A stretch of 64,000 bases of DNA from Gammaproteobacteria bacterium (GCA_965277715.1 OZ255836.1:3136001-3200000); one strand, 5' to 3'; positions 49,409 to 64,000 are shown, counted from the first letter of the stretch. The notes: a model not told the origin generated them from the letters alone. Translations and numbers: made by a program.

Positions 49409-49656
49409 TTACCCTCTCAGAAATGATCCATTGAGCCTGAATTGGAGATAGAGGAACGACTAAGATTCAGTTTTTCAGTCTTGTCCGCTGTGGTGTTCAT
49501 TAACAACACTTAAAAGAGAGCTTCAACGATCCTTCAAGCACTCTCGTCACTCTATCTGGGGTTTTGGGTAAAATTAATAATTAGAACACCACCCTCAATT
49601 CTTGCTAATATCTCTTAATATTCTTAGTACAAATGAATTCTATACTGGATCAATTC

Positions 49657-50631
49657 ATGGCACTTGCCGACCAATTAAAAGCTTTGCTTCAGTCGCACTC
49701 CGAAGGCGACGATGCACAGTTTTATTCGATAGCAATGCAGCTAGCAGCACATGAGGCTAAAGTGGGCCATGGAAAGTTGGCAAAAGAGCTTAGAGAACTC
49801 ATAGATCAAGCCAAAAGCGTATCATCGTATAATAAAAAGCCGGTACTCATCACACGGCCAAGAGGTGAGCTATCTGAACTCCTCTCGGCTAGTTATCCCA
49901 AGCTAAATTTGAGCGATATTGTATTATCCGCAGAAATTGAGGAAAGGTTAAATCGGCTAGTCAAAGAACACCGGGAGATTCGCAATTTACGGAGCTATGG
50001 ATTGTCTCCTCGACGGAGAATTTTATTAGTTGGCCCTCCTGGTACTGGCAAAACCCTCACTGCATCGACAATCGCTGGAGAGTTGGGGTTACCACTGTTC
50101 ACTGTTCGGCTTGATAGCCTTATTACTAAATTCATGGGGGAAACTGCCTCAAAACTACGATTGGTCTTTGATGCGATCGCCCAAACGCGAGGCGTCTATT
50201 TATTTGATGAGTTTGATAGCATTGGTTCTCAAAGAGGTCTAGCAAATGACGTCGGTGAGATTCGCAGGGTACTAAACAGCTTCCTTCAAATGGTTGAACA
50301 AGATTCATCCGATAGCATTATCTTTGCTGCAACTAATCATATAGAAATTTTGGATCATGCTCTTTTTAGACGCTTTGATGACATCATTGATTACGAGCTT
50401 CCCGAAAAAACTGAAATAGTTTTAGCGTTTAAATCAAAATTAGCTAGTTCCAAAGTCTCACGGATTGAATGGCAGAAGCTTGCTTTATTGAGTGATGGAT
50501 TGAGTTTTGCTGATATTACCCATGTCTGTGAAGATGCGATTAAGAACGTAATAATAAATAGAAAACCGTCTGTGACTACAGCTGAGCTAGTTAAGTCTAT
50601 TAGCGATAGAAAACGTATTCGGAAAAATTAG
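49657..50631 (+). CDS. AAA+ ATPase, IetA-like
   Basis: QLAAHEAK.GH, GPPGTGKT, LITKFMGET, FDEFDSIG, NDVGEIRRVLNS, ALFRRFDD. Confidence 0.88.
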   Translation: MALADQLKALLQSHSEGDDAQFYSIAMQLAAHEAKVGHGKLAKELRELIDQAKSVSSYNKKPVLITRPRGELSELLSASYPKLNLSDIVLSAEIEERLNRLVKEHREIRNLRSYGLSPRRRILLVGPPGTGKTLTASTIAGELGLPLFTVRLDSLITKFMGETASKLRLVFDAIAQTRGVYLFDEFDSIGSQRGLANDVGEIRRVLNSFLQMVEQDSSDSIIFAATNHIEILDHALFRRFDDIIDYELPEKTEIVLAFKSKLASSKVSRIEWQKLALLSDGLSFADITHVCEDAIKNVIINRKPSVTTAELVKSISDRKRIRKN

Positions 50632-53138
50632 TGTCTGAACCTCCTGAAGGCAAGTTACGGCATCTAATCGTTAATGGATTTCATGAATCAAGCGAATACT
50701 CTTCGCCAAATTCTGGCCGCCCTCCAGGTTTTAGAACACCGAGAAGAGACAGAGAAGCTCATTCACAGCGACTTACCGAGCAGTTGCAATACGCACAAGC
50801 TCGCGAGGTGGAAATAGTTAGGCAACAACGCGCAATTGGGCTAGATGCAGGAAATGGAATTTACATTAAATTTGAGAGTGATCCAGGTTTCGAGCTCAAA
50901 TTTAAAAGTTTAGAATTTACAACAAGTGGCATTGAGCTGTGTTCGGTAAAACGAATTGGCACTACTGGCACTACTACAGCTACGGTATTTGTCCCAGAAG
51001 GAAAATTAGACCACTTTCTAAAACGGATAACTAAATACAAAGAAGAGGATACAAAACCGAGAACTGAAGAAGGAATCTCCAAGGCTTGTCATAAAGATTT
51101 AGTCGAGAGTATAGGCAATATACGGCTGGCATCTCTAGAAGCGCTTTGGACTGACGACCCTGCCCTTTTCCCTCAAGCCGACGAACCTATTTGGTGGGAA
51201 ATTTGGCTAAGAGACAACGAAACGCTTGACTACGAAGGGCTCGCTCGTGAGCACCTCAATCAAATGGAACTCACTGTATCTCCTGACTCTATCAAGTTTA
51301 TTGACAGAACAATCATTCTGGTAAATGGCTCAAAAACTCAATTAACCAACTCTATACTTCTCTTGGGGTTCATAGCAGAAGTTCGAAAAGCTAAGGAAAA
51401 TGCTTCCTTCTTTCTTGGGCTTGACCGAAAAGAACAAAACGAATGGGTCACAGATTTAGTTGAACGAACAACGCCACCCGGCCCAAATCCACCATCAGTT
51501 TGCATTATGGATACCGGCGTGAACTGCTTACATCCATTATTAGCTATTTGTAGTTCAGATGATGATATGCATACGTATAGTCCTGAATGGGGAACGGATG
51601 ATCGATTCGGCCATGGCACCCAAATGGCTGGCCTCGCCACTTATGGCGACCTGACAAATTGCCTCGGCCATACAGACGAAGTAAGCATTTCTGGCATATT
51701 GGAATCTGCAAAGATAATCCCCTCACCTCGCTTTTCTCATGAAAAGCACCTATATGGCGCTATTATTCGCGAAAGTGTAGCGCGAGTGGAGGTCGGAGGA
51801 CGACGGTTGCGAACTTTTTGCCTGGCTGTTACAGCCGATGATGCCCGAGACAGGGGTAAACCATCTTCCTGGTCTGCCTCAATTGATGCGATTAGTTCTG
51901 GATATGAAGATGAGCAGCGTCGGTTATTTATACTTTCTGCGGGAAATACTGATCCTGGCGGTCGTGCTGATTATCCATGTAGCAATTTCACTGATGAAGT
52001 GCATGATCCAGGTCAATCGTGGAATTCACTGACTGTAGGTGCTTACACAGATAAAGATAATCTCGATACTGAAAAATACCCAGGGTGGACACCTATCGCG
52101 CCAAGAGGAGATATTGCTCCCTCTAGCTGCACCTCCATGCAATGGGCGAAAGCATGGCCAATCAAGCCAGAAATAGTTCTTGAAGGTGGCAATATGGGGA
52201 AAAACCCTGCTGACGGTTCTGCTGATTATATTGATGACAACCTACAACTATTGACTACTGGTCATCAACCTTTACTTGATCGTCAGATAGTTTCTTTTGG
52301 CGACACCAGTGCTGCTGCCGCTCTTGCTGCAAAGCATTCTTGCGACCTTCAAGCAACTTATCCTGAATTTTGGCCTGAGACTATAAAGGCATTATTTGTC
52401 CATTCTGCTGAGTGGACAGAAGCAATGAAAGAGAGATTCGATTTAAAGAAACAAAAGGGGTATCGACAACTTCTGAAATACTGCGGCTATGGGGTTCCTA
52501 ACTTTGAAAAGCTTGCTTGGAGTACAAAAAGCTCGCTATGTATAGTGAGTCAAGAAATGTTACAACCTTACCAGCGAATCGGTTCTAAAAAACCCTCAAC
52601 CCGAGACATCAACATCTACATGCTACCTTGGCCGGATGAAGTTTTAGCAAATATCCCAGAAGACACGCCTGTCGAAATGAAAGTAACCCTTTCATATTTT
52701 ATAGAACCAAATCCTGGTGCACGAGGATGGTCGACAAAGTATCAATACGCCTCGCATGGCCTTAGATTTCAGGTTAGACGACCTCTAGAAAGCCTTGATT
52801 CATTCAAGGCACGCATAAATCAGAAAGCTAGAGATGAAGAACTGGGAAGATATACAACTACTGCTGACTCAGGCAAATGGCAATTAGGTGAAAAGCTACG
52901 AACGCTAGGGTCGATTCACAGTGACACCTGGACTGGCAATGCCCTAGAGCTAATCCAGAGAAAGAACCTCGCTATCTACCCTGTGGGGGGGTGGTGGAAG
53001 GAGCGAATTAAAGCGGACAGGTGGCATAAATCAGCTCGATATGCGCTTATAGTATCGCTGAGTACACCCACCTTAGAAACAGATATGTACACACCTATAG
53101 CTCAGCAGATTGAGAATCGAGTTGGTATTGAAGTGTAA
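50631..53138 (+). CDS. S8 subtilisin-like serine peptidase, IetS-like
   Basis: IMDTGV, GHGTQMAG, SAGN, IKPEIV, DTSAAA; WWEIWL, YASHGLRF, IYPVGGWWK; translationally coupled to the ATPase. Confidence 0.88.
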   Translation: MSEPPEGKLRHLIVNGFHESSEYSSPNSGRPPGFRTPRRDREAHSQRLTEQLQYAQAREVEIVRQQRAIGLDAGNGIYIKFESDPGFELKFKSLEFTTSGIELCSVKRIGTTGTTTATVFVPEGKLDHFLKRITKYKEEDTKPRTEEGISKACHKDLVESIGNIRLASLEALWTDDPALFPQADEPIWWEIWLRDNETLDYEGLAREHLNQMELTVSPDSIKFIDRTIILVNGSKTQLTNSILLLGFIAEVRKAKENASFFLGLDRKEQNEWVTDLVERTTPPGPNPPSVCIMDTGVNCLHPLLAICSSDDDMHTYSPEWGTDDRFGHGTQMAGLATYGDLTNCLGHTDEVSISGILESAKIIPSPRFSHEKHLYGAIIRESVARVEVGGRRLRTFCLAVTADDARDRGKPSSWSASIDAISSGYEDEQRRLFILSAGNTDPGGRADYPCSNFTDEVHDPGQSWNSLTVGAYTDKDNLDTEKYPGWTPIAPRGDIAPSSCTSMQWAKAWPIKPEIVLEGGNMGKNPADGSADYIDDNLQLLTTGHQPLLDRQIVSFGDTSAAAALAAKHSCDLQATYPEFWPETIKALFVHSAEWTEAMKERFDLKKQKGYRQLLKYCGYGVPNFEKLAWSTKSSLCIVSQEMLQPYQRIGSKKPSTRDINIYMLPWPDEVLANIPEDTPVEMKVTLSYFIEPNPGARGWSTKYQYASHGLRFQVRRPLESLDSFKARINQKARDEELGRYTTTADSGKWQLGEKLRTLGSIHSDTWTGNALELIQRKNLAIYPVGGWWKERIKADRWHKSARYALIVSLSTPTLETDMYTPIAQQIENRVGIEV

Positions 53139-53376: not shown

Positions 53377-53661
53377 TCAACTCCCACGAATGAACTCAAT
53401 AACAGCACGCGTAACGACATCAGTTGTTGCTGTTCCGCCAAGATCAGGCGTATGCAAAGCAGGGTTTGCAGTCGTTCGCTCAATAGCCTGCATCAGCATT
53501 TCAGATGCTGTTGCCTCGCCCAGGTGTTCCAGCATCAAGACCGCTGTCCAAAAGGTCCCGATAGGGTTTGCAATCCCCTTGCCGGTAATATCAAAGGCAG
53601 AACCGTGAATCGGCTCGAACATTGAAGGAAATTGTCGCTCTGGGTTCAGGTTTGCGGTGTG
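53377..53661 (-). pseudogene. 3' fragment of a tartrate/isopropylmalate dehydrogenase gene
   Basis: TANLNPERQFPSMFEPIHGSAFDITGKGIANP...TPDLGG; 5' part replaced by an AAGGGGGTCAG junction. Confidence 0.85.
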
Positions 53662-53675
53662 CAAGCAAGGGGGTC

Positions 53676-53903
53676 AGCAAGGGGGTCAGGCTTATTATTC
53701 ACCATACAACGACTAATACGGATAAAAACAGTGATTTCCAGCAATGAAGTATAGAAAATAACTGCCTTGACCCCTTTTTCCTTATGTAAATAGCAAGGGG
53801 GTCAGGCTTATTATTCACCATACAACGACTAATACGGATAAAAACAGTGATTTCCAGCAATGAAGTATAGAAAATAACTGCCTTGACCCCTTTTTCCTTA
53901 TGT
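53676..53903. mobile_element. two tandem ~112-bp MITE-like units with imperfect terminal inverted repeats
   Basis: AAGGGGGTCAGGCTTATT...AATAACTGCCTTGACCCCTT; copies start at 53676 and 53792. Confidence 0.65.
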
Positions 53904-54951
53904 CATAAATCGCTACTTCGTTGTCGTCTATATCCCGGTTTAACAGCCGTGTGTTCGAGTTTTCTGCATCACCGAGAACGACCTCACCCTCGCCCACTGT
54001 TCCCAGGGTTTTGGTTTTGCTGTGTTGATTGTCATTGCTGTAGTCCAGGCTGACGGTTTGTCCTAGCCCCACACTCGCCGAGGTTGAGCGCGCTTCTACT
54101 GTGTTGTTCAGGCTGCCCACTTCCAGGGTATTGGTAACTAGCGTCAGTTGTTGGTTGTCATTACCGTCTTCATCCACGGCGGCTATCGTTGCCCCTCGCA
54201 ATGTCGTCGCTTCCGCCACAGTGATGTCGACTGTTTCACCCAGCAATTGGGTGTCTACGGTGTTTTTGATCACCGATCGCGCCCTGGCGTTGCTTAGCCC
54301 CGCTGAGTTGATGCCACTGCTGCTAAACCCGGCACTGAACCCCTGGGATTGACTGCGGTCTTTGGTGCTGTTTTGCACCGAGGCCACATGCAGGGTTTGG
54401 GTGTTCAGGCTCAGGGTGTCGCCCGCCGCTACATCCGCCCCTTTAATCTGCGTGGTATCTCTTGTGGTGATCGTGATGTTATTGGCCAACAGGGAGGCGT
54501 TGGTTTGCGTGATCTCACGGCGGCTGCTACTGGCGCTGTCACTGCTCAGGTTGACACCACCCCCACTGCCCCCGTACAGATCGATCGAGATATTGACGTT
54601 TCTATGCTCGGTGCTGGTTTCCCGCGTTGAAAGATCCTGGGAGGCGAGGATGTTTAAGTCCTGACTGTCGATGGTGATACCTTCACCGGCTTGCAGGTGG
54701 CTACCCTGTATCGTGGCGGTGTTGTTGGCATTGATGGTAATCGTATTACCCGCACTCAACGTCGAGGCCACTGAACGCTGCTGGGCTTCACTCAGTTGTT
54801 CTTCCAGCACATCCAGATCAATTTCAAGGCCCGCGTTAAAGCCGTAGGTGCCGCTGCTCGCCGCTGCCTTGGCCAAATGTGCGGTGGTGCCGACACACAG
54901 GCAAGCCAATAGAACAATCAACAGGTTATGACAAACAAGAGAAAGACGCAT
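53900..54951 (-). pseudogene. truncated toxin cassette 4 (signal peptide + hemagglutinin repeats, no toxin tip)
   Basis: near-identical to the first ~351 aa of the two complete toxins; homology stops at VAIYDI at the TGACCCC-T junction. Confidence 0.85.
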
Positions 54952-55113
54952 AAACAGAGTGTAACGATTGGTGAGTATTTGGCGAGTAGTTTTTCTTTTC
55001 GGTGGGAATTTACAAATATCGTTAGCGCGACCAGTGGGCCAAGTTTATCAACCGATCAATATAATACTTGCCTCTAATTTTTCTTTTGAATGCAATTAAA
55101 TATACCTGACCCC
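54952..55113 (-). repeat. conserved ~160-bp toxin leader, copy 4
   Basis: near-identical to 59243-59404, 59757-59918 and 63248-63409; begins GGGGTCAGGTATATTTAATTGC on the minus strand; partial fifth copy at 55221-55312. Confidence 0.9.
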
Positions 55114-55392
55114 TTTTGTTGCTTCTTGACCTCTTTTATTGCTTCTATGAGATGATGTACCAGATTGAAAGTCAGTTGAATAGTGAATAACTGGCCTGAC
55201 CCCTTTTTTCTTTTTTTGCTTTAGCGCGACCAGTGGGCCAAGTTTATCAACCGATCAATATAATACTTGCCCCTAATTTTTCTTTTGAATGTAATTAAAT
55301 ATACCTGACCCCTTTTATTGCTTCTATGAGATGATGTACCAGATTGAAAGTCAGTTGGATAGTGAATAACTGGCCTGACCCCTTTTATTTTT

Positions 55393-55593
55393 ATCCTGGC
55401 GAAACACGGTTCTGGGCATCGGGAGAACTCCAAGCGATTGGCTTGGCGTCACAGGATAACCAAAAACAGATTAAATGTTTACGAAAACTTATTTCAGCAC
55501 TTTCTCAGATACCGCGTTTTTACTGGGTGGCTGGGGTATTCAAACCTATAACGGGAAGTGCTGAAATACTTACAGCTTAAGGAAGTGCCATTC
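55393..55593 (-). mobile_element. probable left end of an IS4-family element
   Basis: terminal IR GAATGGCACTTCCTTAAG (55576-55593), internal inverted repeat, GGAG plus ATG start (MPRTVFRQD) cut at a motif junction. Confidence 0.55.
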
Positions 55594-55611
55594 ATACCTG
55601 ACCCCTTTTAT

Positions 55612-55812
55612 TGTGTGGGTAATCGACCGGGGCGTATTGAACCAAGAGTGGTTAAACGAAGACCCAAACCATATCCTTTATTGATGCAGCCAAGGGACGT
55701 GGCCAGAAGTGTTGTTAAAAAATATGGCCATCCCAAAAAACAGAAATAGGTCATTTACAATGAAAGTACTTCCATATTTTTCATGTACTTAGAGCTTAAG
55801 GAAGTGCCATTC
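55612..55812 (+). mobile_element. right end of an IS4-family element (transposase C-terminus + IR)
   Basis: VGNRPGRIEPRVVKRRPKPYPLL...GHPKKQK*, IR CTTAAGGAAGTGCCATTC 55795-55812. Confidence 0.75.
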
Positions 55813-55862
55813 TGGCCTGACCCCTTTTTTCTTCCTTTTTTCTCTTAACGCGACTGAATTGG

Positions 55863-56156
55863 CTAACTGTTCTGCCGCAAAGAGGTATGAATTTCAGCTA
55901 CTGTTTCCCACGAAGAAAACGGTGAATCGGGATTTTCATTAAATGGTTTCAACTGATGGGAAAAACCCTCTGAGACTCGACTGGATGTCCACATAGAAAG
56001 TTTTTCCCTGTCTGAACCGAATTCGTCATTCATTAGCACTCGCTCTAACACAAGGTATAATTCTCGATATGGACTAGATTCGTCGCACCAATTTAATCTT
56101 TTCGCGTTATCCAACAACCAACGTAAACGTTCTTTAATGGATTGGTTAATACTCAT
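55863..56156 (-). CDS. putative immunity protein for toxin B
   Basis: 97 aa, AT-rich, start overlaps the toxin stop codon. Confidence 0.7.
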   Translation of the reverse strand: MSINQSIKERLRWLLDNAKRLNWCDESSPYRELYLVLERVLMNDEFGSDREKLSMWTSSRVSEGFSHQLKPFNENPDSPFSSWETVAEIHTSLRQNS

Positions 56157-59100
56157 TATGGTTGACTCAATGTCTCGCCCAACGTAACCGGAGGATTAGT
56201 ACCGTAAGTAGTTCCGCCAGGAGCAAATGTTTGCCATCCTTGACCAGGCAACGGGTTCAAACCTGTCCAATTTTGGGGTGCAACAACACCTTCAAGCACA
56301 TGAACAGGCTGGTTAACAGTCCCGACATTCAAGTACGTAGCAGGATTATTTGGAGGCAATGCCAGGTTATCAACAACTTGGCTCGGCACTTGCCCTGCTG
56401 TTCCGGGTGTTAAGAACTGCCCTGATGCAGGATTTGTGGAACCACCAGAATAAATTCCAAATATCTCTCCAGGTTGAGCCTGACGAATATAAATAGGGCC
56501 ATCAAAGGACTCAACAATACCACTGATATTACCTTCGGGGACTCCTGTTTGGCGTAGGTAATCCGCCGCCTGATCTGGGGTAACTTCATATCTTGGTGTT
56601 GGCGCTTCCGGAGCATTAGGCGGATTAACTAGTGTACCGTTTACATGGCCACCATTAGGAAACTCTATACGGGCAATTTGCCTCTCTGACTCACCAGGCA
56701 GATCCACATCACGACTTGGCGCAACATCCCCACCTACTCTACCACGCCCCGTAACCAAATCAACCGCCCTGTCCTTAACATCCTCCGGGATAATCTTCGC
56801 TACCTTGTTTATTACCGCCGTCTCTGCCGCCCATAAACCCAGGCTAACCGCTCCATCAACAAACACACTCTGGTCTCCCTGATGGCTTTCTGTCGTGAAT
56901 GAATCCAATACACGCTGGCCTTGGACACTTGTATAATCACCAAACAACGTCACCGCACCATCCACTGCCTGAGCCGCCGCCAGGCCCGTTAATGCCGCCG
57001 TCCCTACCGGTGCCGCACAACCCACCACCGTCGTACACAGTGGCGATGTCGCTATCGTTGCCCCTGCACCAACAACTGTGCCCACAGTGCCAATCCCTGC
57101 ATTGATCGCTCCCCCCGTTCTGTGGATTATTTCCCCATTTGCATCAACACCGTCTTGTACTCTGTCACCCAAACCGTATTCAAACTGATCAGCCGGCACC
57201 ACGCTCCCCAACATACCCTCTAGCGTCGCCCCCTGGGATTGCAGTTCTTCGCCCAACGCCTGCAAGGTTGCCAGTTGTTCGTAGTGCGCATCATCTTCTG
57301 GCACACCTTGCGCGCAATTCACCGCTGCACACGCAACAGCATCCAGCTGCGCCCTCATCGTTTGTTGTTCTTCTGCACTTAAATCTGCACGCGCACTGAT
57401 GTTGGCTCGCGCCTGTACCAGCGTTTGTGCTTCTCTTGTATGGAATTGGCGGTTGTTCACTACCGCGTTACCCACTGCGTTCGCACGTACCGTGCCCTGC
57501 GTAACCGCATTGCTTGTTATCAACGTCTCCCTAAATTCCGTACCCCCGGTACTATCAAGATCGCCGCCTGCCGCCTGGTTTAAACGCCCTGATAACTGTT
57601 CGCCAAACGCATCCGCCACCACTTCCTGACCTGCATCATTTGCCTCCCCTTCCTGCAACGTCCGGTTTTCGATTAATTCATGCCCTAAGGTCGTGAGTAA
57701 ATCCGTTTTACTTTCCCCGTTTGCATCAACAAATAGGTCACCGTATTGATCATGGCTTTCATCCGCTACCGTGCCACCTCTTCTGTCCAGAAGAAGGTTA
57801 TCCCCCAGTGACGCACTCGTTGTCGTTGTGCCGTCGTACAGGTTGATCTCACTCAGCGAGACACCAAACTTTTCCTGTGCCAGGTGACCTACTTCAACCA
57901 TTCCCTGAGCGTACAACTCACCATCACCACTGAGGAGTTTCTCCAATATTGCGGCATTCTCCGGGTTGCGTAGCAGGTCATTTTTCAGTTGCGTGCCCAC
58001 TGTGTTGTTTTGCGCGACTTCAAAGAAATCGAGCAGGTTCAGGGCATCGTTTTCCGATAAGGTCTCGGCGGCACGGGCAAGATCTTGACCCAATTCCGCA
58101 CTATCAACAAAGTCGTTTCTAATCCCTTCCCGACCTGCTTCTGTCAACAACCGCGTATCCAACGACCCACTCAACCCCTGGTGCGATTCAATGTCATAAA
58201 TCGCCACTTCGTTGTCGTCTATATCCCGGTTTAACAGCCGTGTGTTCGAGTTTTCTGCATCACCGAGAACGACCTCACCCTCGCCCACTGTTCCCAGGGT
58301 TTTGGTTTTGCTGTGTTGATTGTCATTGCTGTAGTCCAGGCTGACGGTCTGCCCAACACCCACACTCGCCGAGGTCGAGCGCGCTTCTACTGTGTTGTTC
58401 AGGCTGCCCACTTCCAGGGTGTTGGTAACTAGCGTCAGTTGTTGGTTGTCATTACCGTCTTCATCCACGGCGGCTATCGTTGCCCCTCGCAATGTCGTCG
58501 CTTCCGCCACGGTGATGTCGACTGTTTCACCCAGCAATTGGGTGTCTACGGTGTTTTTGATCACCGATCGCGCCCTGGCATTGCTTAGCCCCGCTGAGTT
58601 GATGCCACTGCTGCTAAACCCGGCACTGAACCCCTGGGATTGACTGCGGTCTTTGGTGCTGTTTTGCACCGAGGCCACATGCAGGGTTTGGGTGTTCAGG
58701 CTCAGGGTGTCGCCCGCCGCTACATCCGCCCCTTTGATCTGCGTGGTATCTCTTGTGTTTATCGTAATGTTATTGGCCAACAGGGAGGCGTTGGTTTGTG
58801 TGATCTCACGGCGGCTGCTACTGGCGCTGTCACTGCTCAGGTTGACACCACCCCCACTGCCCCCGTACAGATCAATGGCAATATTGACATTTCTATGCTC
58901 GGTGCTGGTTTCCCGGGTCGAGAGGTCTTGGGAGGCGAGGACGTTTAAATCCTGACTGTCGATGGTGATACCTTCACCGGCTTGCAGGTGACTGCCCTGC
59001 ACTGTAGCGGTGTTGTTGGCATTGATAGTAATCGTGTTACCCGCACTCAACGTCGAGGCCACTGAACGCTGCTGGGCTTCACTCAGTTGTTCTTCCAGTA

Positions 59101-59242
59101 CATCCAGGTCAATTTCAAGGCCTGCGTTAAAGCCGTAAGTGCCGCTGCTCGCCGCTGCCTTGCCCAAATGTGTGGCGGTGCCGACACACAGGCAAGCCAA
59201 TAAAACAATCAACAGGTTATGACAAACAAGAGAAAGACGCAT
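56156..59242 (-). CDS. polymorphic toxin B: signal peptide, hemagglutinin repeats, degenerate peptidase-like region, TNT-like C-terminal domain
   Basis: FHA-2-like repeats, LDTRLL, VVNNRQFH, ACAAVNCAQGVP, C-terminal GQFLTP/LALPP/VLEGVVAPQ/PGQGWQ. Confidence 0.8.
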   Translation of the reverse strand: MRLSLVCHNLLIVLLACLCVGTATHLGKAAASSGTYGFNAGLEIDLDVLEEQLSEAQQRSVASTLSAGNTITINANNTATVQGSHLQAGEGITIDSQDLNVLASQDLSTRETSTEHRNVNIAIDLYGGSGGGVNLSSDSASSSRREITQTNASLLANNITINTRDTTQIKGADVAAGDTLSLNTQTLHVASVQNSTKDRSQSQGFSAGFSSSGINSAGLSNARARSVIKNTVDTQLLGETVDITVAEATTLRGATIAAVDEDGNDNQQLTLVTNTLEVGSLNNTVEARSTSASVGVGQTVSLDYSNDNQHSKTKTLGTVGEGEVVLGDAENSNTRLLNRDIDDNEVAIYDIESHQGLSGSLDTRLLTEAGREGIRNDFVDSAELGQDLARAAETLSENDALNLLDFFEVAQNNTVGTQLKNDLLRNPENAAILEKLLSGDGELYAQGMVEVGHLAQEKFGVSLSEINLYDGTTTTSASLGDNLLLDRRGGTVADESHDQYGDLFVDANGESKTDLLTTLGHELIENRTLQEGEANDAGQEVVADAFGEQLSGRLNQAAGGDLDSTGGTEFRETLITSNAVTQGTVRANAVGNAVVNNRQFHTREAQTLVQARANISARADLSAEEQQTMRAQLDAVACAAVNCAQGVPEDDAHYEQLATLQALGEELQSQGATLEGMLGSVVPADQFEYGLGDRVQDGVDANGEIIHRTGGAINAGIGTVGTVVGAGATIATSPLCTTVVGCAAPVGTAALTGLAAAQAVDGAVTLFGDYTSVQGQRVLDSFTTESHQGDQSVFVDGAVSLGLWAAETAVINKVAKIIPEDVKDRAVDLVTGRGRVGGDVAPSRDVDLPGESERQIARIEFPNGGHVNGTLVNPPNAPEAPTPRYEVTPDQAADYLRQTGVPEGNISGIVESFDGPIYIRQAQPGEIFGIYSGGSTNPASGQFLTPGTAGQVPSQVVDNLALPPNNPATYLNVGTVNQPVHVLEGVVAPQNWTGLNPLPGQGWQTFAPGGTTYGTNPPVTLGETLSQP

Positions 59243-59404
59243 AAACAGAGTGTAACGATTGGTGAGTATTTGGCGAGTAGTTTTTCTTTTCGGTAGGAAT
59301 TTACAAATATCGTTAGCGCGACCAGTGGGCCAAGTTTATCAACCGATCAATATAATACTTGCCCTTAATTTTTCTTTTGAATGCAATTAAATATACCTGA
59401 CCCC
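59243..59404 (-). repeat. conserved toxin leader, copy 3
   Basis: near-identical to the other three leaders. Confidence 0.9.
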
Positions 59405-59490
59405 TTTTATTGCTTCTATGAGATGATGTACCAGATTGAAAGTCAGTTGAATAGTGAATAACTGACCTGACCCCTTTTTTCCTTTTTTTT

Positions 59491-59756
59491 CCGGCTTGCA
59501 GGTGACTGCCCTGCACTGTAGCGGTGTTGTTGGCATTGATGGTAATCGTGTTACCCGCACTCAACGTCGAGGCGACTGAACGCTGCTGGGCTTCACTCAG
59601 TTGTTCTTCCAGTACATCCAGGTCAATTTCAAGACCTGCGTTAAAACCGTAAGTGCCGCTGCTCGCCGCTGCCTTGCCCAAATGTGCGGCGGTGCCGACA
59701 CACAGGCAAGCCAATAGAACAATCAACAGGTTATGACAAACAAGAGAAAGACGCAT
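59491..59756 (-). pseudogene. truncated toxin cassette 2 (first ~88 codons only)
   Basis: same N-terminus, ends at GSHLQAG at the TGACCCC-T junction (59468-59490). Confidence 0.85.
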
Positions 59757-59918
59757 AAACAGAGTGTAACGATTGGTGAGTATTTGGCGAGTAGTTTTTC
59801 TTTTCGGTGGGAATTTACAAATATCGTTAGCGCGACCAGTGGGCCAAGTTTATCAACCGATCAATATAATACTTGCCTCTAATTTTTCTTTTGAATGCAA
59901 TTAAATATACCTGACCCC
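59757..59918 (-). repeat. conserved toxin leader, copy 2
   Basis: near-identical to the other three leaders. Confidence 0.9.
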
Positions 59919-60041
59919 TTTTGTTAAGGAAGTGCCATTCTGCCTTGACCTCTTTTTTTGAATAGTGAATAACTGGCCTGACCCCTTTTCTTTGCTTGAC
60001 TCTTCTACTTCTACTTTTTTCCGTTTAATGTGGAACGTTGG

Positions 60042-60356
60042 TCAAAGGTCTCTTTCTTCAAAATGATCAGACATCGTTTTCAGATAATCCATGCAAGCAT
60101 TAAAATCAGGTTGGAAATCAGCAGTGGTTCTAACTTCACCTTTGTCACTCAAAACTAAAGCAGACTTACGTAAACTGGCATTTTTTGGAATCTCGATCTC
60201 TGGATTTCGGAAAAACATCCACGCTCGCCCATGATTCAAACATTTACTTTGAAGCAGCGCCTGCCCTTCTTTTAGAAAAAACGACCACTCAATTGCTCCA
60301 GCATTTACAGCAAGTGAAACAATTTCTTCATACGTTAATTTTGAATTTTTCATCAT
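60042..60356 (-). CDS. putative immunity protein for toxin A
   Basis: 104 aa, AT-rich, ATGA overlap with the toxin stop; AWMFFRN motif reminiscent of Imm35/YrhB-like proteins. Confidence 0.7.
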   Translation of the reverse strand: MMKNSKLTYEEIVSLAVNAGAIEWSFFLKEGQALLQSKCLNHGRAWMFFRNPEIEIPKNASLRKSALVLSDKGEVRTTADFQPDFNACMDYLKTMSDHFEERDL

Positions 60357-63247
60357 GGATAACCCGGTATCACAGTCAAATTAGGTTGTAAGTCAACGAT
60401 ACTACCCAACTGAGGATCAACATAATGGACCGTACCACCCCTGTTCACGCCAACAATCACATGCTCAACGCCACCACTTTGTTGAATACGGACCACAGCC
60501 ACTGCACCATCACCTTGCCCTAAAAGAGTGTTGGTAACACTTGACGGCGTAGTAGCTCTACTAAACCCCCATGGTGCTGATGGAAGCAAATCATTTGGAG
60601 TGCCATAGCCAGCGGATGGTGCAGCAACTGCGTTTGGGTTTCTTCCTGTTAAGCGATCAACAGTAGCATTTACACCTGCACTTGCGCCATCAACATAATG
60701 CGGATTCACACCAGCTAGTTCAGGAAACTCATCGGTCATTGGCCGTGTACTGCCGTAAATTCTATCAACAGCACTGCCACAACGTCCACCCGCACAACTA
60801 TTTGTAGCTACTCCACTTGCAGCATTACCCGCCTCAACCTCAACCTCAACATCCGTACCCGTATCCGCAGTATTACTTACATTTTGATCATTCCCTAGAC
60901 CATCCACTTGAGCAACCTGACCATCACCCTCAAGATTAGTGCTACTATTATCCCTCGGTATATCTAGATCCGGTCCATTTGGAGCATCTGGACCATCACC
61001 CAATCCCCTCAATACACGGTCCAGCTTACCCAATCCCACTATACCTGCAAGGTATGCCCCGTAATTCTCACCCTCTTCAAACGAACCCGATAAACCACCA
61101 TTATCCAGTGTGGCAATCTCTTCCATTGCTTCATTTATTTCTTTACCAGCATTGTCTAAGCTTGTCCTTATCTGTTCCTTTTCTTCTTCCGTAACCGGGC
61201 TGCCCTCATAGATCTCGTGCAAGCGATTTAACGCACCACCCAGTTCGCTTACTACCCGTTCTGCCTCCTCTGGGTCTTCTATTAATTCGTTGATTTGATC
61301 AACTAGCGCAACCACATCTTCTATTGTCTGCTCAACCGCACCTGATGCCATTCCCAACATTTCTGCTGCACCTTGGACTGCGCTGACTGTGTAATAGAAC
61401 TGATTCGTCACCATCTCACAAGACCTTCCATCGCACGCTTCAAGATCCTCTCGCTGTTCCGCTTCCTGGGTGGGTGTCAGACGGTTATCACCCTCATCTT
61501 TATCCAATCCTTCAAACTCTGCATTGTTTTCAGCTACACGCTCACTCGTTTCAGTCCCTACACGGTTATTCTCGCTCGCCAACCCTCCTTCGTAACCATT
61601 TACCTCCAGCGCAAACTCCGTGTATTCCGCCAGGTTTTCACCGTAATTGTCCGCATAGCTTTCATTGTCCTGCGTATTATCAAGGTCTACTTCTTCCGAT
61701 TGCCTGTCTATCGCATGTGAGGTCTCGTGGCCCGCTGTGGTGATTAGTTCTTCGGTATTCTCTATGTGTTGATCATTGATATACGCATGACCCGTTTCAT
61801 CTGAGTAGTAACCTTGCACCGCCTCACCGTCCCGGCCTGCCACATCAGTATTGACTAGCCTGTTTTCGTGGCTTTCGTAGCCCAGCTCGGCCATCACCGA
61901 TGAGGTAATCTGGTTGAGCAGTTGTTCTTTCTCTGCCGGGTTTAGATTCGGGTTTTGCAGTGCATTGGCCAATGCAGGGGTGTTGGCTATTTCAGTCTTT
62001 ACCGCCTCGTAGGTGCGATGGGCTTTATCTGTTTCACTGAAAAAGTCTTCAACTCCTACGCGCTCTGTCGTGGCGATCAGTTCGATGGTATTGACGATCA
62101 TTTCCGATTTAAGAATATCCTCGGCAATCGCCGTTCTTCCTCTTTCTGTCAACAACCGCGTATCCAACGACCCACTCAACCCCTGGTGCGATTCAATGTC
62201 ATAAATCGCTACTTCGTTGTCGTCTATATCCCGGTTTAACAGCCGTGTGTTCGAGTTTTCTGCATCACCGAGAACGATTTCACCCTCGCCCACTGTTCCC
62301 AGGGTTTTGGTTTTGCTGTGTTGATTGTCATTGCTGTAGTCCAGGCTGACGGTCTGCCCAACACCCACACTCGCCGAGGTCGAGCGCGCTTCTACTGTGT
62401 TGTTCAGGCTGCCCACTTCCAGGGTGTTGGTAACTAGCGTCAGTTGTTGGTTGTCATTACCGTCTTCATCCACGGCAGCTATCGTTGCCCCTCGCAATGT
62501 CGTCGCTTCCGCCACGGTGATGTCGACTGTTTCACCCAGCAATTGGGTGTCTACGGTGTTTTTGATCACCGACCGCGCCCTGGCGTTGCTTAGCCCCGCT
62601 GAGTTGATGCCACTGCTGCTAAACCCCGCACTAGCCCCCTGGGATTGACTGCGGTCTTTGGTGCTGTTTTGCACCGAGGCCACATGCAGGGTTTGGGTGT
62701 TCAGGCTCAGGGTGTCGCCCGCCGCTATATCCGCACCTTTGATCTGCGTGGTATCTCTTGTGTTTATCGTAATGTTATTGGCCAGCAGGGAGGCGTTGGT
62801 TTGCGTGATCTCACGGCGGCTGCTACTGGCGCTGTCACTGCTCAGGTTGACACCACCCCCACTGCCCCCGTACAGGTCGATCGAGATATTGACGTTTCTA
62901 TGCTCAGTGCTGGTTTCCCGCGTTGAAAGATCCTGGGAGGCGAGGACGTTTAAGTCCTGACTGTCGATGGTGATACCTTCACCGGCTTGCAGGTGGCTAC
63001 CCTGTATCGTGGCGGTGTTGTTGGCATTGATGGTAATCGTGTTACCTGCACTCAATGTCGAGGCCACTGAACGCTGCTGGGCTTCACTCAGTTGTTCTTC
63101 CAGTACATCCAGGTCAATTTCAAGACCTGCGTTAAAACCGTAAGTGCCGCTGCTCGCCGCTGCCTTGCCCAAATGTGCGGCGGTGCCGACACACAGGCAA
63201 GCCAATAGAACAATCAACAGGTTATGACAAACAAGAGAAAGACGCAT
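60353..63247 (-). CDS. polymorphic toxin A: signal peptide, hemagglutinin repeats, HExxH domain, papain-like (Tox-PL) tip
   Basis: FHA-2-like repeats, LDTRLL, GHETSH, C-terminal GVNP...DRLTG...EHV...GTVHYVDPQLG. Confidence 0.8.
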   Translation of the reverse strand: MRLSLVCHNLLIVLLACLCVGTAAHLGKAAASSGTYGFNAGLEIDLDVLEEQLSEAQQRSVASTLSAGNTITINANNTATIQGSHLQAGEGITIDSQDLNVLASQDLSTRETSTEHRNVNISIDLYGGSGGGVNLSSDSASSSRREITQTNASLLANNITINTRDTTQIKGADIAAGDTLSLNTQTLHVASVQNSTKDRSQSQGASAGFSSSGINSAGLSNARARSVIKNTVDTQLLGETVDITVAEATTLRGATIAAVDEDGNDNQQLTLVTNTLEVGSLNNTVEARSTSASVGVGQTVSLDYSNDNQHSKTKTLGTVGEGEIVLGDAENSNTRLLNRDIDDNEVAIYDIESHQGLSGSLDTRLLTERGRTAIAEDILKSEMIVNTIELIATTERVGVEDFFSETDKAHRTYEAVKTEIANTPALANALQNPNLNPAEKEQLLNQITSSVMAELGYESHENRLVNTDVAGRDGEAVQGYYSDETGHAYINDQHIENTEELITTAGHETSHAIDRQSEEVDLDNTQDNESYADNYGENLAEYTEFALEVNGYEGGLASENNRVGTETSERVAENNAEFEGLDKDEGDNRLTPTQEAEQREDLEACDGRSCEMVTNQFYYTVSAVQGAAEMLGMASGAVEQTIEDVVALVDQINELIEDPEEAERVVSELGGALNRLHEIYEGSPVTEEEKEQIRTSLDNAGKEINEAMEEIATLDNGGLSGSFEEGENYGAYLAGIVGLGKLDRVLRGLGDGPDAPNGPDLDIPRDNSSTNLEGDGQVAQVDGLGNDQNVSNTADTGTDVEVEVEAGNAASGVATNSCAGGRCGSAVDRIYGSTRPMTDEFPELAGVNPHYVDGASAGVNATVDRLTGRNPNAVAAPSAGYGTPNDLLPSAPWGFSRATTPSSVTNTLLGQGDGAVAVVRIQQSGGVEHVIVGVNRGGTVHYVDPQLGSIVDLQPNLTVIPGYP

Positions 63248-63409
63248 AAACAGAGTGTAACGATTGGTGAGTATTTGGCGAGTAGTTTTTCTTTTCGGTA
63301 GGAATTTACAAATATCGTTAGCGCGACCAGTGGGCCAAGTTTATCAACCGATCAATATAATACTTGCCCCTAATTTTTCTTTTGAATGCAATTAAATATA
63401 CCTGACCCC
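63248..63409 (-). repeat. conserved toxin leader, copy 1
   Basis: near-identical to the other three leaders. Confidence 0.9.
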
Positions 63410-63493
63410 TTTTGTTAAGGAAGTGCCATTCTGCCTTGACCTCTTTTTTTTAATAGTGAATAACTGGCCTGACCCCTTTTTGGACCCCTTTTT

Positions 63494-64000
63494 GATTATG
63501 TGACGCTCATCAATGATATCGATGGAGGGCGAGTATTGGATGTAGTGAAAGTGAAAGATCGCACCCAGGCAGCGTGTGAGGAGGCGTTGGAGGTTGCGCT
63601 GACGGATAACCAGCGAGAACAGGTGAAAGCTGTCGCTATTGATAGGTGGCCTGCGTTCATTAATGCCGTTGAGGTAAAACTGTCAGACAGTGCGATTGTT
63701 CACGACCGTTTTCCTATTAGCCAACACCTGAATAAGGCGGTGGATCAGGTCCGTCGTGACGAACATAGAGACCTTTTGTCACAGGGTGATACTCGATTGA
63801 AAAAGAGTCGTTATCACTGGTTAAAAAATGAAGAAAATTTGTCTAACAAAGCAGCCGAGCACTTTGAGTCACTCAAGCATGATCAGTTATTGACAGCCCG
63901 AGCCTGGGCGATAAAAGAACTGTTTCGTGATTTTTGGACGTATAAGACAGCGGGTTGGGCAAAGCGTTTCTTTAGCGCATGGTATGCGTGGGCAATTCGG
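63494..64000 (+). mobile_element. 5'-truncated ISL3-family transposase (runs off the window)
   Basis: manual translation DYVTLINDIDGGRVLDV...VKAVAIDRWPAF...IVHDRFPISQHLNKAVDQVRRDE...LKKSRYHWLKN...TARAWAIKE; begins directly after GACCCCTTTTT. Confidence 0.85.

Follow-up and report, generated by a model that had tools for sequence, protein, structure and literature searches.

A tandem array of probable TpsA/CdiA-like toxin cassettes with a shared hydrophobic head in a gammaproteobacterial genome

A 64,000-nucleotide stretch of the genome of a Gammaproteobacteria bacterium (GCA_965277715.1 OZ255836.1:3136001-3200000; hereafter the window) carries an array of four minus-strand copies of one 5′ unit, numbered 1 to 4, with ATG codons at positions 54951, 59242, 59756 and 63247. 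Leader, 27-codon hydrophobic head and hemagglutinin-repeat block are common to all four copies, which open with MRLSLVCHNLLIVLLACLCVG..AAASSGTYGFNAG. A preliminary description of the window had reported the four copies and the fusion of leader and head to the repeats, and both were confirmed on the minus strand; the array, which it let begin at 54868, within copy 1, truly extends from approximately 53676 to 63493. The copies had been regarded as self-contained toxins, each perhaps expressed and exported independently. The comparisons presented here lead us to favor, on balance and with some reserve, a different reading in which they form a displaced or amplified array of orphan TpsA/CdiA-like toxin/immunity cassettes lying among miniature inverted-repeat transposable elements (MITEs); each cassette would have an unusually long homology arm and, fused in front of it, a head of foreign origin. 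Coordinates are collected in Table 1.

Homology to TpsA and the cassette boundary

Fifty-four longer homologues, of 1883-3603 residues, were retrieved; 50 of them have the two-partner secretion (TPS) domain PF05860, and identity over the shared block reaches 55% in the best. Residues 15-763 of copy 4 align to residues 1638-2382 of the 2532-aa TpsA P0001 (49% identity over 754 aa), and the copies align similarly to a 2297-residue Sedimenticola protein. In these alignments the copies correspond to the last ~900 residues, or tail third, of TpsA/CdiA-like exoproteins of 2100-2850 aa. The homology starts at the motif AAASSGTYGFN, which is conserved inside the full-length proteins together with a helical lead-in: a coiled-coil stretch is followed there by a conserved ..ANIALA..LATKT..Q.A.. 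segment and then by AAASSGTYGFN. Neither this lead-in nor the coiled coil was found in any frame upstream of the copies. Their homology to full-length toxin genes is confined to the 3′ part, from a motif conserved within these genes, and they have the hemagglutinin-type beta-helix repeats of TpsA (PF13332; 49-55% identity to TpsA over the block). Among Pfam families only PF13332 was matched by the four open reading frames (ORFs), at aa 55-205 with E values of 1e-14 to 1e-15, and PF05860, which the preliminary description had proposed to look for alongside it, was absent. That description had also stated that the window contains neither a TPS domain nor TpsB; indeed, tblastn searches of the 64 kb with six TpsA N-terminal pieces of 1600 aa and four TpsB proteins gave no match to either. 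Scans of genome contigs with a single protein found no match, and those of metagenome contigs found only distant relatives, in collections that exclude the organism of the window.

Truncated homologues that start within a few residues of AAASSGTYGFN include P0057, P0083, P0086, P0146, P0075 (Vibrio sp. VB16) and a Campylobacter concisus group. Sulfurimonas sp. CS5, whose genome is complete, has a tpsB-tpsA-immunity locus with a TpsA of 2604 aa; behind it lies an orphan that begins at the same motif, reads ..TAKAAASSASYG in frame and has no start codon. In the closest relative, a Thiohalomonadaceae metagenome-assembled genome (MAG), tpsB, a tpsA gene for a 2532-aa protein and an immunity gene are followed by three orphans cut at query residues 16, 157 and 269. 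In the light of these comparisons, the copies of the window are most naturally classed as orphan cassettes of a TpsA toxin. The comparisons also place the start of the swap unit of this TpsA subfamily ~340 codons before the variable region.

The two whole copies, 2 and 4, share 368 codons up to the sequence LDTRLLTE, 36 of which differ (30 by synonymous and six by nonsynonymous changes). Beyond this point identity falls to 23% over ~190 aa around an HExxH-type motif (HETSH at 507 in copy 4, HELIE at 521 in copy 2), and the sequences then become unrelated; near-identity followed by divergence had been correctly reported. In most members (e.g. P0057, P0058, P0066, P0074 and P0075) LDTRLLTE is followed by a helical region of ~200-400 residues with a conserved GHExxH, matching no Pfam family and located in the window at 60356-62143 and 56159-58138. 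In this TpsA subfamily the region may act as a releasing peptidase or as an entry domain. In copy 4 the tail matched the papain-fold toxin family PF15644 with an E value of 1.3e-4 and 23.5 bits, the cut-off being 24.1. In copy 2 the leads for the tail were weak and TNT-like (E 0.14 for PF14021; Atlas, 0.92), and we do not call a toxin type from them. Searching PDB sequences with the copy 2 tail and the whole copy 4 variable region produced nothing below E 0.1, and AlphaFold2 single-sequence models of the two C-terminal domains were too poor for use (mean predicted local distance difference test (pLDDT) values of 41.1 and 43.4).

Both whole copies are followed by a small overlapping ORF. Neither the two whole proteins nor the two small ORFs matched an NCBIfam family, and the 104-aa ORF downstream of copy 4 matched none in Pfam. 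When residues 800-964 of copy 4 were modeled in complex with this 104-aa ORF, a score of 0.83 was obtained, against 0.01 for the best of three controls; the runs agreed in at least 85% of contacts and the partner's pLDDT was at least 89. The mark was reached by 51 of 78 solved complexes and by two of 108 mismatched pairs. The model supports copy 4 and the 104-aa ORF being an intact toxin-immunity pair.

These data bear on the idea that the copies are decaying relics without a present role, left from a tpsBA locus destroyed by insertion sequence (IS) and MITE activity, the genome being rich in both kinds of element. In keeping with decay, two copies are truncated, a truncated ISL3 gene and an isocitrate/isopropylmalate dehydrogenase (Iso_dh) fragment lie at the ends of the array, IS-like scraps occur between units, and the window lacks TpsB and a TPS domain. 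However, two ORFs of ~1000 codons run without a stop, the codons that differ do so mostly by synonymous changes, the toxin-immunity interface was modeled with high confidence, and the junction between head and block persists in other populations (see below). We consider that the copies are improbable candidates for mere relics.

Sequence exchange and a parent-type copy

The 40 nucleotide differences between copies 2 and 4 are clustered, 13 of them falling in one 81-nt interval where 2.9 would be expected (permutation p 0.0003). They include one run of five consecutive synonymous codons, and the site patterns across all four copies are mosaic. Because the differences are both clustered and mosaic, we ascribe them to gene conversion from diverged homologues, a signature that fits the 1.1-kb block being a recombination arm. 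For the same reason, a low ratio of nonsynonymous to synonymous substitution rates (dN/dS) was rejected as proof of function: the differences were probably imported by gene conversion.

The stretch is present in seven sequencing runs, all of DNA: three belong to the study of the organism itself, and the remaining four are sponge metagenomes produced by three other studies. Contigs from four of these runs (X1, X4, X5 and X7) were compared with positions 60000-64000, parts of which had no cover in X4, X5 and X7. A contig of run X1, from the same organism, matches the block up to 63167 and then diverges, with KTTAVAAQIA in frame before KAAASSG (hand translation). KTTAVAAQIA is an authentic TpsA lead-in, eight of its ten residues being as in P0005. 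In run X4, the final 58 letters of a 1477-letter contig match 63110-63167. By these contigs, a longer, parent-type copy exists in the same material. The preliminary description had allowed that a full-length cdiA beyond the window, together with a lack of transcription and of a predicted signal peptide, would mark the copies as silent orphans, and the presence, in runs of the same organism, of a block preceded by TpsA sequence goes part of the way in this direction. The break point between the two types of sequence, 63167/63168, falls within codon 27 of the array copies; their leader and first 27 codons are foreign to the toxin gene. Read depth in X1 (222 over the shared block, 26 over the unique toxin part) hints at more copies elsewhere; it was not used, depth not being copy number. 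Another X1 contig has a loose end at 63258: its likeness to the array begins 11 nt upstream of the ATG and takes in the head. The head therefore occurs in a second context, possibly the donor gene or another copy of the array type.

The array probably originated as follows. Each unit keeps the last hemagglutinin-repeat block from AAASSGTYGFN onward, a variable pretoxin/toxin region of ~600-660 residues and, after it, a small putative immunity gene. A single ancestral event would have fused this 3′ third to a foreign segment of ~150 nt, made of the leader and 27 codons. The fused unit would then have multiplied in tandem among MITE-like repeats, two of the copies being cut later by MITEs. With the near-identical 1.1-kb block as homology arm, the copies have exchanged sequence mutually or with further homologues, and could provide alternative toxin/immunity ends to the longer, parent-type gene of the same organism's runs. 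The immunity genes may protect in their own right. Under this scheme the array would act as a reservoir, and the ATG and hydrophobic head would presumably be a by-product of the junction rather than an export device. Counted in favor of such displacement and amplification is the "junkyard" character of the locus, with 16 MITE motifs, a truncated ISL3 gene and an Iso_dh fragment. No full-length gene of the same family lies upstream within the window, the truncated ISL3 gene adjoins the array, and a longer copy is found in the same-organism runs.

The leader and the hydrophobic head

The leader, described as a ~160-bp sequence common to the copies, is indeed common to them but composite: it consists of a MITE-like repeat with AAGGGGTCAGG motifs and of ~70 nt unique to the copies. 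A 52-nt leader pattern occurs exactly four times in the window, once before each copy (0 expected), while the AAGGGGTCAGG-like MITE motifs number 16, all within 53.6-63.5 kb. As had been noted, a weak promoter-like sequence, TCGCCA-16-TACACT, lies close to the ATG, the TACACT box ending 6 nt before it; its score of 8/12 is below the scan threshold of 9. If this box works, the mRNA of the copies would be leaderless. A second promoter-like site, TTCAAA-18-TATTAT, is borne by the MITE ~110 nt 5′ of every copy, such matches being no commoner than in shuffled sequence. No Shine-Dalgarno match precedes the ATG of the copies, again as reported; because few genes of the window have one, this is a weak argument against translation. 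Each of the four copies has its frame opened by this ATG, and in-frame stops lie 32 codons 5′ of it. RNA folding of leader plus head was no better than that of shuffles (z -0.9). Over the 88 nt before the ATG the copies differ by 0-1 changes, against ~3.4 expected at the average rate; since divergence is patchy, this deficit is not significant and constraint on the leader was rejected. The possibility that the leader is the 3′ end of a TpsB gene was also discarded, as it showed, by eye, no convincing likeness to TpsB C-termini.

The head has an arginine at position 2 and a 19-residue segment with a mean Kyte-Doolittle hydropathy of 2.0-2.4, followed by small-x-small sites (TAA/GKA). T accounts for 26% of the 88 nt before the ATG, 40% of the head and 16% of the repeat block, with a switch at the ATG. 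The head passes a crude signal-peptide rule of our own, as do 15 of 261 mostly spurious ORFs. The suggestion that LLAC (cysteine at 17) might be a non-canonical lipobox held for a permissive, PROSITE-like pattern of our own and failed for the strict one, [LVI][ASTVI][GAS]C, which is absent from the head. In its residue make-up, the head looks like a Sec or lipoprotein signal. It is joined in frame to the block at a real module boundary.

These properties raise the possibility that the copies are working, self-contained toxins, transcribed from the leader and exported to the periplasm or outer membrane by a predicted Sec or lipoprotein route. Such proteins would reach neighbors by vesicles, lysis or another porter, or wait in the periplasm like the C-terminal half of CdiA. 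Some precedent exists in MafB, a polymorphic toxin that leaves by a Sec signal and for which some mafB-CT cassettes have start codons (PMC4287609). Besides the signal-peptide features of the head and the composition switch exactly at the ATG, this explanation draws on the in-frame fusion, on the two long intact ORFs with their downstream partners, on the junction kept in other sponge metagenome runs, on the failure of searches with the block and with TPS-domain proteins to find an intact parent on the window's contig, and on the recurrence of signal-like heads, of at least ten different kinds and at various truncation points, on truncated homologues. It is weakened by the failed strict lipobox rule, by the missing Shine-Dalgarno sequence and sub-threshold promoter, and by the state of the copies, two of which are broken. 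The extent of the repeat block retained by headed homologues, from all of it to ~100 residues, argues against a fixed functional requirement, and the Thiohalomonadaceae head described below is a DNA hairpin with a compensatory change, not a selected peptide. In relatives the orphans lie behind tpsBA, and a parent-type copy exists. To our knowledge, type Vb secretion offers no outer-membrane route to a TpsA without a TPS domain. On this evidence the notion of independent delivery cassettes retains its signal-like head, its in-frame junction kept elsewhere and its recurrence, and appears rather unlikely overall.

A second way to account for the head is that the copies are internal in-frame deletions of tpsA which kept its own 5′ untranslated region and signal and lost the TPS domain, shaft and coiled coil, yielding a product that stops in the periplasm. 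This would explain the presence of a real-looking signal and an untranslated leader before the block. The head measures 25 residues before an AAxL-type site, which is also the commonest length among related TpsA proteins: a start motif could be recognised in 67 of these, and 18 have this length. However, a TpsA signal-peptide profile built from 57 signals recovers six of six TpsA N-termini in the collected loci (E 6e-11 to 9e-5), and among 435 N-termini it does not place the head of the copies in its best 40, so that identification of this head as tpsA's own signal peptide is unsupported. Nor is there in the copies any remnant of the TPS start (LQTDG), and the leader is unlike TpsB C-termini. 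We judge an origin by internal deletion very improbable.

How often heads of this kind occur was assessed on 34 homologues. They were drawn from 62 listed ones matching near their own N-terminus; the other 28, in which fewer than 12 residues precede the match, were dropped before counting. A strongly hydrophobic N-terminal 13-mer was found in 14 of the 34 (13 by another count). The crude signal-peptide rule was passed by 11 of them, against the 15 of 261 short, mostly spurious ORFs, and by 19 of 95 long ORFs from the collected loci and the window; in these figures some rows are related (P0065/P0067; P0103/P0111) and the control is not matched for position behind a terminator. By eye, at least ten head types could be distinguished, at truncation points from query residue 15 to 269 (e.g. 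P0216, P0111/P0103, P0150, P0200 and P0058), and the headed homologues keep anything from the whole repeat block to ~100 residues of it. One interpretation is that signal-headed TpsA tails without a TPS domain are a recurrent, selected architecture in several marine lineages, the window holding an amplified family of such genes; we find this doubtful.

The Thiohalomonadaceae orphans illustrate how a head can mislead. All that the three share is a short element, ~54 nt long in two of them: a pyrimidine-rich loop lies between the arms ATGGCGCT(G/A)C and G(C/T)AGCGCCAT, and TTTTCGT follows. The stem of this hairpin is 9-10 bp long and in one copy shows a compensatory change from G-C to A-T. The conserved "signal" residues of these heads, MAL and AP, are exactly the stem arms; for this reason we take the head to be a nucleic-acid element read through in frame. 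It may be a terminator, or else a junction or recombination site of the cassette system. In frame the element reads as MALLLLGAAPFSFAN-like "signal peptides", and similar heads are found in the metagenome proteins P0065, P0067 and P0139. No such hairpin stood out in the head of the window copies.

A number of observations weigh against the orphan-array reading. The two intact ORFs, of 964 and 1028 codons, and the predominance of synonymous codon differences between them (30 to 6) are among these, as is the excess of signal-like heads on truncated homologues (11 of 34 versus 15 of 261). Unlike classical orphans, which lack start codons (PMC9086364), the four copies share an identical 5′ junction with an ATG and a hydrophobic head. 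This junction is bridged by contigs of X1 (62196-63347), X4 (63110-63404) and X5 (63110-63294); as X4 and X5 are sponge metagenomes of two other studies, the fusion is old, has been kept and predates the population split. Furthermore, the parent-type copy could be another orphan or come from a co-occurring strain. No full-length parent on the window's own contig of 4,294,796 bp, from which all six ORFs of the array are recorded, was among the block homologues, at either "near" or "longer" lengths, where this contig contributed the window's own protein alone; it is absent from the best 120 of 6745 TPS-domain hits.

Genomic setting and relation to known systems

Both broken copies were cut by MITEs. 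Copy 3 is interrupted at about codon 90 by a MITE-like insertion that runs directly into the leader of copy 2, and copy 1 at about codon 351 by two tandem identical elements; the ORFs of the two broken copies span 59313-59756 (147 aa) and 53815-54951 (378 aa), respectively. The ISL3 transposase gene at the upstream end of the array is without approximately its first 140 codons and shows very high contig depth in the sponge metagenome run X7. At the downstream end, 53377-53664 holds an isolated C-terminal fragment of an Iso_dh gene (model positions 262-346 of 348). Between MITE pieces, 55344-55749 on the plus strand contains short ORFs (..VKRRPKPYPLLMQPRD..) with the look of transposase scraps, for which Pfam gave nothing. 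Farther out, at 49633-53138, a gene for an AAA ATPase (332 aa) has a subtilase gene (PF00082; 835 aa) directly behind it, the stop of the first overlapping the start of the second. Together they look like a defence-type or processing module, and their GC content (0.43-0.45) is below that of the flanks.

Table 1. Features of the array and of the Thiohalomonadaceae orphans. Positions are those of the window unless a locus is named.
Feature	Position	Strand	Remarks
Copy 4, whole, 964 aa	60353-63247	-	Head, codons 1-27; hemagglutinin-repeat block, 28-368; HExxH-bearing middle region; C-terminal papain-fold-like toxin candidate
Copy 2, whole, 1028 aa	56156-59242	-	First 368 codons as in copy 4, then other middle region and other C-terminal domain
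Copy 3, broken	59490-59756	-	Head and ~62 codons of repeat block
Copy 1, broken	53899-54951	-	Head and repeat block to ~codon 351
Candidate immunity ORF of copy 4, 104 aa	60042-60356	-	Overlaps copy 4 stop
Candidate immunity ORF of copy 2, 97 aa	55863-56156	-	ATG overlaps copy 2 stop; candidate by position only
27-codon hydrophobic head (MRLSLVCHNLLIVLLACLCVGTAAHLG), copy 4	63167-63247	-	Same head at 59162-59242, 59676-59756 and 54871-54951
Unique ~70-nt leader, copy 4	63248-63317	-	Between MITE-like repeat and ATG; contains TCGCCA-16-TACACT
MITE-like repeat with AAGGGGTCAGG motifs and TTCAAA-18-TATTAT promoter-like site	63318-63493	-	Equivalents 5′ of each copy
Two tandem identical 112-nt MITEs, GGGGTCA-type inverted ends	53676-53903	n/a	Truncate copy 1
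5′-truncated ISL3-family transposase gene	63500-64000	+	NF033550 model positions 142-305 of 370; abuts upstream end of array
Hairpin and T-run element, Thiohalomonadaceae MAG	L003:15524-15577; L003:19962-20015; third copy in L023		Heads three orphans; ~54 nt in the two L003 copies

Orphan cdiA-CT/cdiI modules have no start codon, start at the pretoxin motif and serve recombination (PMC9086364, PMC5422565). They occur downstream of cdiBAI in E. coli, Yersinia and Pseudomonas (Poole et al. 2011, cited after the review PMC9086364) and are regarded as displaced or stored modules for recombination (PMC9086364). Like them, the copies of the window are 5′-truncated 3′ ends arranged in tandem, with their own downstream immunity ORF, and start at a motif of the full-length gene. 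In contrast to the classical modules, which start at VENN or similar, they begin ~340 codons earlier, at AAASSGTYGFN, keep the whole repeat block and a middle region of ~400 residues, and have no full-length gene within the 64 kb of the window. The orphans cdiA4 and cdiA5 of Haemophilus parasuis D74 lie downstream of a full-length cdiA, keep Fil_haemagg_2 (PF13332) and have no conserved export signal (PMC6211672); the window copies resemble them in the retained PF13332 and differ by their signal-like head. The nearest likeness of sequence is that of the Thiohalomonadaceae array (L003, L023), which belongs to the same TpsA subfamily (54% identity) and retains part of the last repeat block. Each of its orphans has a downstream ORF and, at its front, the same short element, whose translation is hydrophobic and resembles a signal. 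There, however, a full tpsB-tpsA pair is adjacent, the cut points are three different ones and the head is the hairpin with its T-run.

Two further systems had been invoked as models for export of the copies. As had been stated for MafB of Neisseria, secretion is signal-peptide dependent; among the mafB-CT cassettes, some possess an initiation codon and are described as "potentially translated" (PMC4287609). MafB, too, is a polymorphic toxin family with downstream CT cassettes each accompanied by an immunity gene; it differs in having DUF1020 and no hemagglutinin repeats, in carrying the signal on the full-length gene rather than on the cassettes, and in being confined to Neisseria (PMC4287609). 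DUF1020 (PF06255) was not among the Pfam matches of the window ORFs. SitA of Myxococcus (PMC5562445) shares with the copies a signal with a lipobox directly before a polymorphic toxin, a downstream immunity gene and delivery without a dedicated secretion domain, and differs in that it is found only in Myxococcales with traAB and is moved by outer membrane exchange, whereas the LLAC of the window fails the strict lipobox. The statement that SitA toxins are lipoproteins with filamentous hemagglutinin repeats was not borne out by this source, whose main text contains neither "hemagglutinin" nor "haemagglutinin". No description of signal-headed TpsA orphans was found in full-text literature searches; supplementary files may list such cases.

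About one third of the truncated homologues examined carry signal-peptide-like heads. Were such heads selected, the protein would enter the periplasm by itself, where the C-terminal half of CdiA normally waits. Vesicles or lysis could then release it as a toxin independent of TpsB, for which the repeat block would be the entry device, or it could form a periplasmic stock of alternative warheads. If no heads are used, the case calls for caution, since the translation of a junction element, be it a hairpin, a T-run or a repeat end, can convincingly mimic a signal peptide. If some are, a share of the sequences now annotated as orphan debris would encode exported proteins, and the last repeat block would function outside two-partner secretion. 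The usual view of orphan modules in contact-dependent inhibition systems is that they are a silent store of toxin ends and have no start; the case of the window differs from these in its swap unit and in its signal-like heads. The early, sharp boundary at AAASSGTYGFN and the 1.1-kb homology arm bear on the way in which the toxins of this widespread marine TpsA subfamily diversify.

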